A DNA stretch of 64,000 nt from Mustelus asterias (taxonomy: Eukaryota): the NCBI RefSeq assembly GCF_964213995.1, contig NC_135817.1, positions 53,258,001 through 53,322,000 of the forward strand. The letters run 5' to 3'. Shown piece by piece: positions 44,819 through 57,046 of the stretch (position 1 is the first letter of the stretch; the number at the start of each line of letters is the position of its first letter). The translations under genes were made by a program, and so were the position numbers. The notes under the pieces were generated by a model. It was not told where the DNA came from and made no database searches. It worked only from the letters and a program-made list of their open reading frames with translations.

Positions 44819-45269
44819 GAGAGAGATTTCACATGTTCAACATCAGTGTGGAGGCTCCTTTCCAAATCTAAAACTCTCCACAGGACCCATCAATCTTGTG
44901 TTTGGGTAGTGGATCACATTTTCCTCAGGAAACCAATGTTATTCCAATAGAAAACGTTTTTAGTAATATAAGGTATAATAAACCAAGCTATGAGCTGGTA
45001 TGATCCCAGCTATAAAAACAGGATTTGAGCATTACACAAGATGTTGAATTCATTGAAGTACAGATTTTTTTTTTCTCCTGAAAAGATTTGCTTTAACTGC
45101 GGGAATTGTGTAACTTACAATACTTACATTTCCTGCAAGTCAGCAGCTGTCAATATTTACATATTATTTAACCTGTTTGCAATGTATACAGATTCTGCAC
45201 AACTCATTGGAACAGCTCCATTATTTAATGGTTTGCAAAGCTCTTCATATTTTCTTGTCTGAAGTTATC

Positions 45270-48100
45270 TCTGGAAAACAAGCTAGACGAACTTAAAGTC
45301 AGACTCGCTTTTCAAAGAGAACTGAAGGAATGCTGTGTACTCTATTTCACGGAGTCGTGGCTCACTCCTGCTTCACCGGACAGTGCCCTACAACTAGAGG
45401 GCTTCTCAATCCCCCAAGTGGACTGTACAGCAGCCTCAGGCAGGGCTAAGGGAGGTGGGGTCTGGTTCCTAGTCAACACCTCATGGTGTCTAGACATATC
45501 AACACTGGTTAGTTTCTGCTCCCCGAACCTAGAATACCTGATGCTAAAATGCTGCCCTTACCACCTTCTGCAGAAGTTCACTTCTGTTATCCTGACAGCA
45601 GTTTACATCCTACCCAATGCAGATATGAAGACCGTGCTGTACAAAATGTACATCAGTACAAATAGCCTTAAGGCAAAACATCCCAAGACCTTGTTCATTG
45701 TGACCGGGGATTTCAATCAGGCCAAGCTCGAGTGTCTGGCCAAGGCACCACCAACACATCTGTTCCACTAGAGGCCCAAACATACTACATAAATATCAAA
45801 CATGTCTACTGCTTTGGCAAATCAGACCACAAGGCTGTGCTCCTGCTCCTGGCTTACAAGCAAAAACAAACAGGAGAATCCATCAAAAAAAGTCATGCGT
45901 TGTTGGTCTGAGGCATTGGATGATCTCCTATAGGACTGCTTAGTCAGTGGACTGGTCAGTATTTAAAAACTCTGCGACCAGCCTGAACAAGTACGCCACT
46001 ACAGTAACTGACTTCATGTGTAGAAGATTGTCAAAGAAGCAGATCCACGTGTTTCCCAACCAGAAACCATGAATGAACTGGGATATCCACTGCTTGCTGA
46101 AACCTAGGTCTGAGGCATTCAAGTCAGGGCAACCCTGACCTATACAAGAAAGTAAGGAGTCTAACAACACCAGGTTAAAGTCCAACAGGTTTATTTGGTA
46201 GCAAACGCCACTAGCTTTCGGAGCGGCGTTTGCTACCAAATAAACCTGTTAGACTTTAACCTGGTGTTGTTAGACTCCTTACTGTGTTTACCCCAGTCCA
46301 ACGCCGGCATTTCCACATCATGATTATACAAGAAAGCCAGATATGATCGAAGGAGATTTGTCAACGATGCCAAAAGACCATACCAGACCAAACTAGAGTT
46401 CCAGGCTAGCCACATGGACCCCAGCTGACTATGGCAAGGTCTACAAGATGAAGGCAGGTAAAATCGCTGGCACTAATGCACCCCTCCCTGATGAACTCAA
46501 TGCATTCTATGCCAATTTTGAGCAAGAGGTCAGCGAGAGCACACACTTCAACCCAGAATCCTCAGACGAACTTGTATCCGAGGTCACCATTGCAGATGAC
46601 AGAGCAGCCTTCTCAAAGGTCAACCCACGGAAAGCGACTGGCCCGGATGGGGTACCCGGATCAGCTGGCGGGGATATTCACAAACATCTTCAACCTCTCT
46701 TTACAACAATCTGAGGTCCTGATCTGCTTCAAGAAGACAACAATCATCCCTGTACCAAAGAAAAACCAAGCAGTGTGCCTTAATGACTATCGTCTGGTGC
46801 TCTTACGCCCATCATTATGAAGTGCTTTGAAAGATTAGTCATGGCACAAATCAATTCCGGTGCCTCAGACTGCCTGGATCCAGTAAGTTCACCTACTGCT
46901 GCAACAGATCCACAGCAGATGCCATCTCCCTGGCGTTGCACTCAACCCTGGAACACTTGGATAACAAAGACACCTATGTCAGACTCCTATTTATCGACAC
47001 CAGCCCAGCCTTCAACACCATTATTCCTACGAAACTCATCTCCAAATCTGTGGCCTGGGACTTAGCTCCTCCCTCTGCAACTGGATCCTGTACTTTCTAA
47101 CCCAGAGACTGCAATCAATAAGTATAGGCGACAACAACACCTCCATGATCATCCTCAACACCGGGGCCCTACAAGGCTGTGTCTTCAGCCCCTTACTATA
47201 CTCATACACCTATGACTGTGTGGCCAAATTCCCCTCCAACTCGATTTTTCAAGTTTGCTGATGACACCACTGTAGTGGGTGGGATCTCAAACAATGATGA
47301 GACGGAGTACAGGAAAGAGTTAGAGAATCAGGTGAACTGATACGGCAACAATAATCTCTCCCTCAATGTCAACAAAATGAAGGAGATAGTCATCGGCTTC
47401 AGGAAGTGTAGTGGAGGACATACCCCTGTCTACATCAATGGGGACGAAGTAGAAATGGTCGAGGGCTTCAAGTTTTTAGGTATCTAGATCACCAACAATC
47501 TGTCCTGGTTCTTCCCCCTCCACCCCCACACATGCCAACACTATAGTTAAGAAAGCCTACCAACGCCTCTACCTTCTGAGAAGATTAAGGAAATTTGGTA
47601 TGTCTGCTACCACTCTCCAACTTTTACAAATGCACCATAGAAAGTATTCTTTCTGGATATATCACAGTTTGGTATTGCTTCTTTGTCCAAGACGCAAGAA
47701 ACTACAAAGGGACATGAATGAAGCCCAGTCCATCATTCAAACCAACCTCCCAACCATTGACAATGTGGACGTTTCCAGCTGCCTCGGAAAAGCAGCCAGC
47801 ATAATTAAGGACCCCATGCACCCCGGATTCTCTCTTCCACCTTCTTCCGTCGGGAAAAAGATACAAAAGTCTGAGGACATGTACCAACCGATTGGAGAAC
47901 AGCTTCTTCCTTGCTGCCATAAGACTTTTGAATGGACCAACCTCACATGAAGTTGATCTTTCTCTCCACCCTAGCTATGATTGTAACACTACATTCTGTA
48001 CACTCTTTTCCTTCTCCGTGTACGGTATGTTTTGCCTATACTAGCGTGCAAGAAACAATACTTTTCACAGTATACAAATACATGTGACAATAAATAAAAT
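45270..48100 (+). mobile_element. Near-complete degenerate Rex1/Babar-type non-LTR retrotransposon (APE endonuclease + RT)
   Basis: Fragments [76 protein letters not shown]; stops and frameshifts; 3' tail ending caataaataaaatc. Confidence 0.85.
46153..46324. mobile_element. Penelope-derived foldback insertion (family B), nested in the Rex1 element
   Basis: Inverted arms caacaccaggttaaagtccaacaggtttatttggtagc...; 12-bp TSD TATACAAGAAAG (46141-46152, 46325-46336). Confidence 0.8.
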
Positions 48101-48268
48101 CGATAATTAGCATCAAAACTGGAACTAGTAATAAAAAGTCACCTCATATTGTTATCCACAGCGTTCTCCTGATGTCAGAGTTGTCACTGCCAGATGTTAA
48201 AGAACAAAACACGGTACATTAGAATCATGCACACGCTTATCACAAAAATGTTAAATTTAACTACTTAC

Positions 48269-48420
48269 CATTTTCTTGAAATTCTGAACGCAGATCATTG
48301 CCGTTAGCATCAAACTTATTCCCACAAAGATCATGAAGTAGCGTGCGATTTCTGGGGTGGACCAGTTAGCCGTAACTGGAGTACATAGGGTGAAATCACT
48401 TGGCTGTAAAAACTGTTCAC
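48269..48420 (-). CDS. IgSF gene exon 4: connecting peptide, transmembrane segment and start of short tail
   Basis: ttgcag|GT..ATG|gtaagt; EQFLQPSDFTLCTPVTANWSTPEIARYFMIFVGISLMLTAMICVQNFKKM. Read-through gives VSS* (TAA at 48259-48257); the next good acceptor (~48187) starts with TGA. Confidence 0.75.
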
Positions 48421-51400: not shown

Positions 51401-54400
51401 TTCCTGCTCCTCTACTCGAATCTTCTCACTATGAAAGCCAATATGCCATTTCCCTTCTTTACCACCGGCTGCACCGGCACACTTACCTTCAGCAATTGGT
51501 GTACGAGGACACCTAGGCCTTATTGCACATTCCCCTCAATCTAGTCATTCAGATAACAATCTGCCTTCCTGTTTTTGCTCCCAAAGTGGATAACCTCACA
51601 TTTATCCACATTATACTATGTCTGCCATGCATTTGTCCACTCACTCAGCTTGTACAAATCACACTGAAGCATCACTGTATCCTCCTCACAGCCCATCCTC
51701 CCACCCAGCTTTGTGTCATCTGCAAATTTGGAGATATCACATTTAGTTCCCTACTCTAAATCTTGTGTATATGGTGAATAGTTGGGGTCCACAGATTTCC
51801 TATAATGCTGAAGGAGGCCATTCAGCCTATCGAGTCTGCACCAATTCTCTGAAAAAGCATCTTACCTAGGCCCAACCTCCCATCCTATCCCCGTAACCTC
51901 ATGCACTTACCATGGCTAATCCATCTAACCAACATATTTTGGGACACTAAGGGACAATTAAGCATAGCCAATCCACCTAACCTGCATATCTTTGACTGCG
52001 GGAGGAAACCAGAGCACCCAGAGGAAACTCACTCATACACAGGGAGAACGTGCAAACTCCACACAGACAGTTACCCAAGGCTGGAATTGAACCCGAGCCC
52101 CTGGTGCTGTGAGGCAGCATGCCGCCCAGCAGTGATCCCTGCGGTACCCCACTAGTCACTGCCTGCCATTTGGAAAAAGACGTGTTTATTCCTACTCTTT
52201 GTTTTCTGTTTGCCAACCAGTTTCTGTCCATCTCAATACACTGACCCCAATCCTACGCGCTTTAATTTTACAAGCTAAGCTTTTATGTGGGACTTTGTTG
52301 AAAGCCTTCCAATGGTCCAAATAAACAACATCCACTGGCTCCCCCTCACCAACCCTACTAATTACCTCCTTGAAGAATTCCAGTGGATTTATCAAGCATT
52401 TTTCCTTTTCTTAAATCCATGCTAACTCTGTCCAATTCTGCCATTGTTTTCCAAGTGCTGTGTTATTAAATCTTTTATAATAAACTCTAGAATTTTCCCC
52501 ACGACCAACACCAGGCTGACTGGTCTATAATTCCCTATTTTTCTCTATCTTCCTTTTTAAATAGTGGAGTTACATTAGCTAACCTCCAGTTTGTAGGAAC
52601 AGATCGAGAGTAGAAGATTTTGGAAGATGACCACAAATGCATCCATTATTTCTAGGGCCACTTCTCTGGGATGTTGATTATCAGGCCCTGGGGATTTGTC
52701 TGTCTTCAGTCCCATCAATTTCCCCAACACCATTTCCCTAATAATACTGGTTTCCTTCCATTCTTCCCTCTCGCTAAACCCTGTGCTCCCCAACATTTCT
52801 GGTATGTTATTTGTGTCGTCCTTTGTGAAGACAGAAACAGAGTATGTATTTAGTTGGGGTCAGTAATTTATTTGTTCCCTATTCTAAATTCCCTTGTTTC
52901 TGACCATAATTGATCTTCACATAACTATAGAAACTTTTACAGCCGTTTTTTATGTTCCCTACAAGCTTACTCTCTCTCTATTTTTCCCTTCTTAATCAAT
53001 CATTTTGTCCTCCTTTGCTGAATTCTAAACTATTCCCAATCTTCAGGGCTGTTGTTTTGTTCTGGTCAGATTGTATGCCTCTTCCTTGGATCTAATACTA
53101 TCTCTAATTTCTTTCCTAAACCATGGTTTGGCCAACTTTTCCATTTTATTTTTGCACCAGATTGGAATGAACAAATGTTGTGGTTCACCAATGTGCTCTT
53201 TGAATGTTTGCCAATGTCTATCCACCGTCATCCCTTTAAGTAATGTTTCCCAATCCATCATAGCCAACTCACACCTCATGCCATCGTAGTTTCTTTTAGA
53301 TTCAGGACCCTAGTCTCAGATTCAACGACGCCACTCTTATGAATAATTCTATCATATTATGGTCGCTCATTCCCAAGGGGCCTTACACAACTTAATCCCA
53401 ATCTTTTCTCATAATCCCTTCCGCTTCTCTCGTGCTTTTTCACCTCCCCTCTGAACCTTCTGTATTCCTCATCATTCATTAATAGGTTTTCTACCTGACA
53501 CCTACCATCAGCACACTTTCTCTTCCTGATCTTAATTTCGATCTCCTTTTTAATTTATCTGAATCACTTACCCCAACTGTCACTGAAACTTATCCTCACT
53601 GGCTCAGAGAGTGTGATGTGTTGAACCTCACAAATGACGGCGGCTCCCTGGTCCCAGTGAGCGTCTGTAATCTGCAGCCGGGAGCTCAGGTTGTAGCTGC
53701 TGTCACTGTTTACTGTCAGCGAGCCCGGTTCGGTTTGATAGGAAACAACTCCCTCTACAATCCAGGAAATGCTCAGATTACTGGGAAAAAATCCCGCAGC
53801 CAAACAAATCAGAGATTGAAGTCCAACAATTTCTTTCTGGGGATCCGCAGAGAGAGAGATTTCAGGTTTGGCTAAATGAACAAAATAAAAAAAACAGATT
53901 CCATCAATCTTCGTTGTTGCAAATACACAGAGAACGACTGTAGAAAAGATTTAAACTTCTACAAGTTTGATAAAAACTGCAGAATCTGTTTGATTAATTA
54001 CAAAACAGGGAAGGAAAATGCAACGCGCATGAAATAAGATCCATAACAATAATATAAATATTATCCAGTGACCTTATAATAAGTGTAATTGGGGCACAAA
54101 TTCAGTTTGTGTTTTTTGGAGCCGCATTGTTAATGAAATGTAAAAAAAAGATAATTATTTCACAAAGACCAGTTTCTCTCCCTGCAATCCGCTTGTTAAA
54201 TAAATGATATTCCGTTGTTAGGACTGGTGTCAGTATAACACAACTTTGTCTTTTGGCCGTTTTTCTTCAAACTAAGTTTTGAAGATGATCTGAAAGTCCC
54301 TGTTGTTTAATGGTTATTGTGACATTAAAGCTAAAAGCGGGTGTGTTCACTCTGGTCCCAGTACACAGAGCATGCCACTTCAGGTTAGATTTCTGTTTTT

Positions 54401-55624
54401 TTCTCTCACATATCGTGCTATTTCAGTGTCTCTTAATCTAATCGGTGAATCACAGAATGGTTACAGCACTGGAGGCGGCCGTTTGGACCATTGTGTCCAT
54501 GCGGCACAACTCAGTTAGTCCCGCTCCAGATTTTTACAGTAGTCACGAATATGTACGCTCTTACCGCCAAATTTTATTTTCCATCAGGATTGAATTTGCC
54601 CCCACCACACTCTCCGGCAGTGTATTCCACACTAAGAAAAATATAAATTCCTCTGTGACCTCTGCTATTTTTGACATTGGTCCTAAATCGGTATTCTATG
54701 GTACTGGACACTGCCTCCAATGAGAATAGTTTCTCCCTATCTCCTCCGACCAGAACCCGGAGCAAAAGCTATTCACTGGGGATGCCAGAACTGGAAGAAG
54801 GTAGAGATGTAACCATTTAAAAGTTTATTAGCAAGGTCATCTATCTGAAATGTTAACTCAGTGTCTGTCTCCACAGAGGCTCAGTAAGAAGTCTCACAAC
54901 ACCAGGTTAAAGTCCAACAGATTTATTTGGTAGCACAAGCCACTAGCTTTCGGAGCGCTGCTCCTTCATCAGGTAAGTGGGAGTAGCGCTCTGAAAACTA
55001 GTGGCTTGTGCTACCAAATAAACCTGTCGGACTTTAACCTGGTGTTGAGAGACTTCTTACTGTGTTTACCCCAGTCCAACGTCGGCATCTCCACATCCAC
55101 AGAGGCTGTCAGAGCTGCTGAATATTTTCTGTTCTTATTTTCTAATTACCTTGAATGTTCAGTTTTGTTGCTTCTCCTACAAACATTTTCAAGGGCAGAG
55201 TGTCCTTTCTAAGAACCACGCAGTGGTAAGTGTCGGAATCGTCCAGAATCACCTGCCGAATGACAAGTGAACCCTCAGATGGAGACAGGCGAGAGCTTTT
55301 CGTGAGGAAATTCTTGGATCCGTCGCTTCTGATGTTCAGGTTGTCTCTTGCCCTACACCAATAATATTTAATCACATCCACCCGCTCCTCTCTGGGTATC
55401 AGGGTGCAATTCATTCGAGCTGTCTGTCCTGTCAGGAGAAACAGAACTGAAGGAAACTGAGTCACATTCAGACCGACAACAGGTCCTGAAACATAAAATT
55501 ATAACATAGGAACATTAAACCCAAATAATCTGAGTACAACTGGAATTACTGATAGCTGGAGTCCAAGTAAATCCTTACCTAAGACAAAGAGGCAGAGTTT
55601 GAGGATCTTTCTAACTGCACCCAT
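48269..55624 (-). CDS. Non-rearranging antigen-receptor-like IgSF membrane protein (leader-VJ-C1-connecting peptide-TM), ~278 aa, 4 exons
   Basis: Exons 55624-55579, 55485-55150, 53871-53572 and 48420-48269 join through phase-1 GT-AG introns into one uninterrupted frame with V-set, C1-set and TM signatures. Confidence 0.85.
48925..49158. mobile_element. Penelope-derived foldback insertion (family A)
   Basis: Near-perfect ~95-bp arms centred on gtcaaagctctgac; 13-bp TSD TAACTGGCTTCCA (48912-48924, 49159-49171). Confidence 0.8.
50830..53390 (-). mobile_element. Degenerate CR1-type LINE with nested SINE, in the C1-TM intron
   Basis: [44 protein letters not shown]. Confidence 0.85.
53572..53871 (-). 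CDS. IgSF gene exon 3: C1-set domain
   Basis: tttag|CC..G|gtaagt; KPEISL..SLICLAAGFFPSNLSISW..NSDSSYNLSSRLQI..W..VICEVQHITLSEP (GFxP and CxVxHxxL motifs). Confidence 0.92.
54882..55095. mobile_element. Penelope-derived foldback insertion (family B) in the V-C intron of the IgSF gene
   Basis: Same family as 46153; 12-bp TSD TCCACAGAGGCT (54870-54881, 55096-55107). Confidence 0.8.
54941..54975 (-). ncRNA. Minimal hammerhead-ribozyme-like motif (PLE-associated)
   Basis: UAC-CUGAUGA-A-GGAGC-AGC-GCUCC-GAA-AGCU-A-GUG: intact core boxes, 5-bp stem II, palindromic stem III. Confidence 0.55.
55150..55485 (-). CDS. IgSF gene exon 2: V-set domain with germline-joined J-like strand
   Basis: tttcag|GA..G|gtaatt; LNVTQFP..GQTARMNC..YYWCR..SLVIRQVILDDSDTYHC..FVGEATKLNIQ. 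Confidence 0.92.
55579..55624 (-). CDS. IgSF gene exon 1: signal peptide
   Basis: ATG at 55624; MGAVRKILKLCLFVL(G); 46-nt exon, donor G|gtaagg, 93-nt intron; same layout as an Ig/TCR V-gene leader. Confidence 0.85.
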
Positions 55625-55684
55625 CCCTCTCACCGGTACTATAGAGCTGTTGGTTATTATGAAGAAAGATCACTGGAAGAATAT

Positions 55685-55709
55685 TGTGGTTGTAGCGCCC
55701 GGTACGTCA
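55685..55709 (-). promoter_or_regulatory. Candidate proximal promoter motifs of the IgSF gene: RUNX site (TGTGGTT) and CRE-like TGACGTAC
   Basis: Motifs lie 60-85 bp upstream of the ATG; short motifs that could be chance matches. Confidence 0.3.
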
Positions 55710-56253
55710 CCTCACTTGTCATTCAGGAGGCGCTTGTGGACAATTTCAACATTTACCACTGCCTGACTCTTAGAGAGGGAGGTCCTGCACCCTGGAAAAC
55801 CTTTACAGGACAAGGAACAGAACTGACACCAAGATAATTAGATTAACTCAAACTGAAATCGTTCAATGAATGGATCAAGGAATCTTCCTGTGTTTCTAAA
55901 ACAGTGCATAATGAAAGTGCTTAAAACCTGAGCTTCTGACTGGAGATTTCAGACACTGGGAATGGAGACTCGTCAGTGAGGAAAAGTTTCAGGCACTTAG
56001 TATAGATTTGATTTGATTGTCACAGATATTGCATACCGTGAAAAGTATTGTTTCTTGTGCGCTGTACGGAGTTCATACGGAGTGTTTTATTTGCATATGT
56101 AACCAACTCCCCACGACTTTCATAATACTCCCACAGTGAACCTCAATGACATATCTCTTTCTCCTGTGCAATTTTGAAGTCTATATTGACTTTACTAGAT
56201 CCTACATATTTTTACAGGTGGGAACACTGTTGATGTGGAATGGGCCTTTGTGT

Positions 56254-57046
56254 TGTTGTACCTGTTAATTCTCAGATACTTTCAACCAGTTTACTTACTC
56301 CAAGGTTTTACCCCGGTGTCCTTATTTGCAAGATGGACAAAGGACAAACACAAATAAAGGTTCAATAAGTTTATTAATAATAACACTATTAACCCTTAAA
56401 TTACCCATATAAAACAAGAGGATACCCCAGATTCAAGTATACTACCCGTAAAGATGGTTTGGTTGAACTGCAGGCCCGATTCTCTGAGTCCCTCTGGTCC
56501 GTTGTCACGAAGGTGAGTCTCGATGACAGCTTCTTCCTTCCTTCTTTCCTTCTTCGGTCAGTCTTCCGAATGGGCAAGGCCGCCTCCTTCGTCGAGTCTT
56601 CGCTCCTGTGTGTCTCACAGTTTGTCCCTTTATCCCCCAGCCTGCTTGCCTTTCCAGAAACTTCTCTGGTTTCCGGCCAATGAGGTCCCAGGAGGGGGTT
56701 CCAATACCCAGTGGGTTTCTTGATGTCTGCCTGACAGGACACCAGGATCCGCCCCCAGGTGTCCCATCTCCCAGGAACTTTCGGTGACGGAAAATCTGGA
56801 CTGATCTGGGCTTCTAACAATAGGCCGGTGCATTTCAATGGGGTGCAATGATCTCCTGCTAAGTATCAAGTAGAGTGTAACGACCATTGATGGGTGGTTG
56901 ATGGGCCAGGCCCAGACACGTTTGTGCATTTGTATAATTGGCCTGCCTGAGGTTTGACTGTGTTTGATTTTTAATATGCCCAATTCTTTAATTTAGGATA
57001 TCCAATTTTATCAGCCTTAAAACTAGGCCCTGTCTATATCACCACA
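56254..57046 (-). mobile_element. Solo LTR (Gypsy/ERV-like)
   Basis: TG...CA termini (tgttgt...accaca); 4-bp TSD GTGT at 56250-56253 and 57047-57050; AATAAA followed by a T/G-rich tract near the minus-strand 3' end (~56370). Confidence 0.7.

Follow-up and report, generated by a model that had tools for sequence, protein, structure and literature searches.

A short-tailed VJ-C1 gene with a transmembrane arginine probably encodes the activating counterpart of a linked tyrosine-motif paralogue in Mustelus asterias

We analyzed a 64,000-nucleotide stretch of Mustelus asterias DNA (the window) and found that the exon under study is the real transmembrane (TM) exon of an intact, non-rearranging gene, denoted gene A. 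Gene A is probably the activating partner of a linked, likely inhibitory paralogue, denoted gene B, and its TM arginine likely recruits FcR-gamma (or CD3-zeta). Little has been mapped of the innate activating receptors in cartilaginous fish, and the locus adds a two-gene on/off candidate pair. A small single-locus pair with a VJ-C1 chain offers a tractable way to study the origin of adaptor-coupled signalling on such chains and the length of time over which gene conversion can keep paired ectodomains alike.

Gene A occupies 55624-48257 of the minus strand with a leader-VJ-C1-TM layout, and its frame is open across the four exons, which are bounded by canonical splice sites (Table 1). The leader, VJ and C1 exons are all phase 1 and are open when joined in order. 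The V domain and the J-like strand form one exon, not the V and J separated by recombination signals that define a rearranging receptor, and a scan of 52001-57000 found no such signals. The peptide quoted by the sequence-only reading from which this work started is encoded by minus-strand positions 48418-48269. The TM exon is single copy in the genome. Among other TM exon candidates in 10.8 kb, just 50886-50790 passed the filter, and it was rejected as a competing TM exon for want of homologue support. The gene A product is absent from the protein collection, whereas the gene B product is present; databases omit gene A and label the pair inconsistently, as SIRP-like, Ig-kappa-like or TCR-beta-like.

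Table 1 Features of gene A and its flanks, in positions of the window.
Feature	Position	Strand	Remarks
Leader exon of gene A	55579..55624	-	ATG at 55624, phase-1 donor; 100% identical to gene B leader, 46 nt
Single-exon VJ domain of gene A	55150..55485	-	Pfam V-set E 5.4e-9; J-like G strand fused
C1-set exon of gene A	53572..53871	-	Pfam C1-set E 1.9e-15
Stalk/TM/tail exon of gene A, most likely splicing	48257..48375	-	acceptor 48375 inferred from models, not reads
TM arginine codon	48341..48343	-	third in best 21-residue hydrophobic window; alignment column invariant
"Hinge" stretch of the sequence-only reading, most likely intron	48376..48420	-	polypyrimidine tract of 48375 acceptor
Candidate acceptor AG then immediate TGA	48184..48188	-	would open non-coding last exon; predicted
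Inverted 3' half of related V exon	55700..55842	+	76% identical; ~80 nt upstream of gene A ATG

The best 21-residue hydrophobic window of gene A (48349-48287, Kyte-Doolittle 2.08) holds the Arg at position 3, and this is the only basic residue of the TM. A GTAAGT donor follows directly after 48269. Read-through of this donor adds three residues before a stop at 48259-48257, and a TGA comes directly after the AG at 48187. By either route, read-through or splicing at 48187, the tail has 6-9 residues. We checked 19 phase-0 acceptor candidates for downstream tail exons and found an ITAM after none of them; an ITIM-like hexamer followed one of the 19, inside a repeat-like stretch. A genome search for the gene B tail gave matches at gene B only and none at gene A.

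We searched for relatives with an ectodomain profile. At E<=1e-20 it gave 14 proteins, and a further 8 came from look-ups of cluster members. Four of the relatives reached in this way have an Arg-type TM: Heterodontus P0018 (261 aa), Pristis P0016 (260 aa), Mobula P0013 (270 aa) and P0014, a partial Scyliorhinus torazame model. These are database gene models from two sharks and two rays, and P0014 is probably also mis-joined. A word search using the TM exon alone scored none of five candidates. Family members were present in Heptranchias, Carcharodon, Cetorhinus, Stegostoma, Hemiscyllium, Chiloscyllium, Scyliorhinus canicula, Narcine and Hypanus, and an Arg-type TM was not retrieved from them; the models of two second copies, P0002 and P0011, end without a TM.

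The 30-residue TM segment of gene A shares 10, 15, 16 and 21 identities with the four elasmobranch proteins, values equalled in 1, 0, 0 and 0 of 20000 shuffles, and the highest of them is with the catshark relative P0014. The Arg is invariant in all five aligned TMs, as are ten TM columns that include P, R, G and S; the P at -4, the R, the I at +4 and the G at +7 fall on one helix face. Arg-type TMs have 10-21 of 30 residues in common with each other and 4-6 of 30 with neutral TMs. The Arg is at position 7 of a 25-residue hydrophobic run in three relatives, and in Mobula the best 21-residue window begins immediately after it. From the Arg to the end there are 22 residues in three of the relatives and 35 in Mobula, with no ITIM or ITAM in any of the four. 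Two claims of the sequence-only reading are thus borne out, a TM Arg inside the hydrophobic stretch that is kept in every Arg-type relative, and the lack of a signalling tail.

The sequence-only reading had also seen a membrane-proximal Cys in the hinge and had proposed a dimer linked by it. The Cys codon (48385-48383) is coding only with acceptor 48420, which likewise leaves the frame of gene A open. Acceptor 48420 has a pyrimidine fraction of 0.47 and an additional AG at -14; acceptor 48375 has a fraction of 0.76 and no AG nearer than -25. All seven reference acceptors of the same genome are without an extra AG in the last 25 nt, and one of them also has a fraction of 0.47, so that 48420 is not excluded by its low pyrimidine fraction taken by itself. 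In three full-length relatives the Arg lies 27, 28 and 29 residues from the second C1 Cys; in gene A the distance is 31 via 48375 and 46 via 48420. A stalk Cys is found in none of the four Arg-type relatives. Because stalk length, the upstream AG and the absence of the residue from the relatives favor 48375, the Cys codon is most likely intronic, and acceptor 48420 with its hinge Cys was rejected. A third in-frame acceptor, 48351, would leave a stalk of 3 residues before the Arg, below that of any relative. The comparison with relatives thus gives no support to the hinge Cys or to the proposed disulfide-linked dimer.

Gene B is an inverted paralogue about 100 kb from gene A on the opposite strand (G000:C17:53.415-53.433 Mb), and these two are the only close copies found in the genome. 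It encodes P0001 (Mustelus asterias, labelled 'SIRP-like'), the best database relative of gene A, with 93% protein identity to the gene A ectodomain. The TM of gene B is uncharged and its long tail has two ITSM-type motifs and no strict ITIM. At the DNA level, the two genes are 100% identical in the leader, 94.3% in V and 98.7% in C1, and about 51% in the TM exon. In bins of 100 nt, identity is 91-100% over the leader and V and over C1 plus the 400 nt of intron that precede it, is 54-79% in the mid-intron, and collapses past the C1 donor. On the other side, similarity stops about 90 nt upstream of the gene A ATG, at the site of the inverted V relic. The 12 V-domain substitutions between the genes fall, by eye, at CDR1-, C'/CDR2- and CDR3/J-like positions, and pN/pS of the V exons is 0.056/0.061.

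Some further features of the pair were observed. The inverted V relic is absent upstream of gene B and is 76% identical to both genes; its J-like end is nearer to other sharks' members than to gene A, and it may be the relic of an older copy. A degenerate, stop-ridden copy of the last tail exon of gene B is located just downstream of that gene (G000:C17:53433461-53433699, +, in L023). An extra Cys after the V-domain Trp (window 55151-55483, -) is kept in most shark members. A second extra V-domain Cys is present in gene B and missing from gene A, and gene A may have an unpaired Cys on its V face.

The same pairing recurs in other elasmobranchs. Heterodontus P0018 has a neutral-TM, tyrosine-motif partner, P0019, on the same contig with 97% ectodomain identity, and Pristis P0016 has such a partner, P0015, on the same contig with 100% identity over 203 columns. 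Among the neutral-TM proteins examined, 8 of 9 have a strict ITIM and 8 of 9 an ITSM-type motif. We constructed an ectodomain tree of 15 rows, leaving out duplicate isoforms and, except for P0011 and P0014, truncated models. All four Arg-type rows with an available partner were sister to the inhibitory row of the same species or genus, with support of 98-100. A single clade of the five Arg-type rows, a group named for the AU test after smaller trees had been inspected, was rejected (p-AU 2.8e-7).

In a wider tree of 31 rows, the elasmobranch family forms a clade (100/99), and the rodent SIRP-beta-1-like protein P0108 falls outside it. V-C1 proteins of paddlefish, sturgeon, bichir, caecilian and toad form a weakly supported sister group (83/60), and several of them carry tyrosine motifs. 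A C1 exon is present between V and TM in gene A and in the full-length relatives. In the family-like proteins P0023, P0170 (Hypanus) and P0175 (sturgeon) the C1 exon is duplicated (V-C1-C1), converging on the SIRP layout. Structure prediction of P0018 gave a mean pLDDT of 38, and atlas matches were to generic V-C1 clusters only.

The locus and its relatives show the features of paired receptors, namely a linked paralogue with a near-identical ectodomain, a member with a basic TM residue and a short tail, and a partner with an uncharged TM and ITIM or ITSM motifs. Within-species homogenisation is confined to the ectodomain, as seen in the tree, the AU test, the DNA identities and the TM identities. 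Because ectodomains group by species, the Arg-type TM is shared across species and identity between genes A and B is patchy, we consider that the paired receptors were probably homogenised by gene conversion, which would keep the ectodomains alike and the TM and tail exons distinct. In mammalian paired receptors, homogenisation restricted to the ectodomains of opposing receptors has been termed "merohomogenization" (available text of PMC3210942). Old orthologous TM exons together with young, species-matched ectodomains make the elasmobranch pattern that of merohomogenization, as far as it is described there.

The genome has two zeta/FcR-gamma-family (PF11628) genes, each with an Asp in its TM exon, which we take to be CD247-like and FcR-gamma-like. 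An N-terminal TM Arg and an adaptor gene with a TM Asp, the two features of FcR-gamma- or CD3-zeta-coupled receptors, are both found in this genome. According to the available text of PMC1440944, FcR-gamma partners carry the Arg in the N-terminal TM segment, at position 3 in Fc-alpha-RI, and DAP12 partners carry a central TM Lys. By the placement of its Arg, gene A would fit the FcR-gamma-partner class. Judged from the sequence, the adaptor-dependent activating receptor that had been proposed is supported by the Arg in five of five TMs, the short motif-free tails and the two adaptor-family genes. In the mechanism we propose, the TM Arg of A would pair with the Asp pair of an FcR-gamma (or CD3-zeta) dimer, and ligand binding to A would lead to Syk-type signalling through the adaptor ITAM. 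The tail of gene B would recruit phosphatases and oppose A, and both receptors would follow one common ligand.

Gene A is located between an SNF2-domain gene, presumably TTF2-like by its resemblance, and a RING/B-box/coiled-coil/filamin gene (TRIM45 architecture). Beyond the TRIM45-like gene lie a third VJ exon and then a B7-family V+C gene. The third VJ gene is a single-exon gene (L015:2780-3143, +; V-set E 5.8e-9) placed between the TRIM45-like and B7-like genes; its best matches in PDB are VNAR and TCR alpha, and no C1 was found between it and the B7 gene. At about L015:9850-9990 (+) lies a candidate TM exon that is short, begins its TM with an Arg toward the N-terminus and has an in-exon stop; its link to the third VJ gene is putative, and together they may possibly encode an NKp30-like activating receptor. 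The V and C exons of the B7-family gene between genes A and B (L018:3351-7580, +) have CD276 and VTCN1 as best PDB hits; by synteny the gene would be VTCN1, and it is a candidate ligand by position only. On human chromosome 1, CD101, TTF2, TRIM45 and VTCN1 lie inside 200 kb (available text of PMC11565109), and that chromosome bears an MHC paralogon (available text of PMC10751288).

Elsewhere on C17, 17-20 Mb away, are two V-C1-type genes of another family at 70.77 and 70.92 Mb (L007, L009) and a zeta/FcR-gamma-family gene at 72.9 Mb (L030). On C8 (32-33 and 50-51 Mb) and C13 (60-61 Mb) of G000 there are arrays of dozens of C1-like exons that are only distantly related to gene B C1 (about 27-29% identity). 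Within the window, a LINE-like element with endonuclease/RT-like ORF pieces, by eye, spans about 45229-48100 (+); its edge is about 160 nt beyond the gene A stop, within the likely 3' UTR.

A bolder extension, which we regard as doubtful, sees in the pair a pre-RAG antigen-receptor module that has survived on the MHC paralogon of human chromosome 1. Such a module would be an unsplit VJ-C1 chain, Arg-coupled to zeta/FcR-gamma and matched with an inhibitory twin by conversion since the shark-ray split (about 250-300 My), that reads the intervening B7-family protein.

Gene A may instead descend from an activating paired receptor and now be decaying or silent in Mustelus asterias. Several irregularities point that way: the missing protein annotation, a Glu at -3 from the Arg (Ala, Val or Phe in relatives), a stalk two residues longer than in relatives with a shifted acceptor, a stop lost one codon past the relatives' end, and the change of the second Gly of the J motif to Ala. 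To these can be added the inverted V relic beside the start, where similarity to gene B ends, and the LINE-like element close beyond the stop. Decay is nevertheless unlikely given four open exons with canonical splice sites, the retention of the Arg together with every one of the 10 invariant TM columns, and the 21/30 TM identities to the catshark relative. Quite unlikely is a tail-less decoy that takes no ITAM adaptor and competes with gene B for ligand, its Arg snorkeling at the membrane surface. The Arg does sit near the outer end of the hydrophobic segment (third of 21 residues, and outside the best window in Mobula), and the Glu at -3 could neutralise it in gene A, but it is invariant in sharks and rays, is the seventh residue of a 25-residue run in three relatives, belongs to a conserved helix face and is placed as in Fc-alpha-RI.

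Highly improbable is the sequence-only reading's own suggestion of a surrogate or invariant TCR-like chain that is disulfide-linked and assembles with CD3. In its favor are the VJ-C1-TM layout, the TM Arg, the short tail, the open frame from acceptor 48420 and V-domain similarity to TCR alpha in PDB, which is weak (E about 0.003, no better than CD4). Against it are the lack of a stalk Cys in relatives, a Cys-to-Arg distance that with 48420 far exceeds their 27-29, the AG at -14 unlike the seven reference acceptors, a single basic residue, the lack of a TCR TM match in PDB, and an ectodomain homogenised with that of its nearest relative, a tyrosine-motif receptor. The parallel once drawn to the TCR alpha TM finds no support either: a PDB search with the TM at E<=10 returned no TCR chain and two matches, both acetylcholine receptor helices, and the N-W-S of gene A is not conserved, with NYL, DYL, DGF and ELS at or near that place in relatives. 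TCR-alpha/delta-type TMs have Arg plus Lys in a conserved antigen-receptor TM motif. Gene A lacks this type of TM and most likely also the interchain Cys of the connecting peptide of TCR chains and pre-T-alpha, and it is very probably not a new T-cell-receptor chain.

By architecture, gene A belongs with the non-rearranging VJ-C1 genes treated in the available text of PMC10751288 and PMC12227049; several such genes are known in tetrapods (PMC10751288, same portion). The locus is absent, for the terms searched, from the VJ-C1 discussion in the available portions of both papers. Our literature search, whose scope lay outside the primary VJ-C1/PRARP papers, found no description of the A/B pair, and gene B's family may already be named by Ohta 2019 (VJC1) or Fu 2019 (PRARP). 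Like gene A, PRARP, other non-rearranging VJ-C1 genes and UrIg have an unsplit VJ exon with a C1 and an MHC-paralogous chromosome. PRARPs bear ITIM/ITSM motifs, and UrIg is secreted; an Arg-type, putatively activating twin among such genes was not described in the literature searched.

NKp30 has a TM Arg and uses zeta/FcR-gamma. Its VJ domain (NKp30/NCR3) is non-rearranging, as is that of gene A (available text of PMC10751288 and PMC12227049). However, NKp30 is a single VJ-type Ig domain without C1 and is MHC-linked, whereas gene A has a C1, TTF2/TRIM45-like neighbors and an inhibitory-type twin. SIRP-alpha and SIRP-beta, whose label many family members carry, resemble the A/B pair in combining V plus C1 with an ITIM/ITSM partner and a charged-TM partner. 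SIRPs are V-C1-C1 with a central TM Lys for DAP12; gene A has one C1 and an Arg, and P0108 groups apart from its family. Hagfish APAR-A and APAR-B are paired VJ-type receptors with a TM Arg and an ITIM, respectively. Teleost NITRs are likewise paired receptors with a VJ-type domain (PMC7916673, which together with PMC13262535 gives, in the available text, NITR and SIRP background only). APAR has one V domain and NITR a V plus an I-type domain, both without C1, unlike gene A.

GPVI, OSCAR, NKp46 and PIR-A are FcR-gamma-coupled and have a single N-terminal TM Arg and a short tail, and FcR-gamma-coupled type I receptors have C2-type ectodomains, unlike gene A. Fc-alpha-RI (available text of PMC1440944) shares the single N-terminal TM Arg and short tail with gene A, for which coupling is putative. 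The closest likeness in pattern is to PIR-A/PIR-B, KLRC, KLRI and DCIR/DCAR, likewise linked pairs with a near-identical ligand-binding part and patchy within-species identity (available text of PMC3210942). In PIR-A/PIR-B-type pairs, too, an Arg with a short tail is set against a tyrosine-motif tail. The shark pair differs in being built on a VJ-C1 antigen-receptor-like chain, and its pattern, shared by sharks and rays, reaches back much further than in the rodents and primates treated in that part of PMC3210942.
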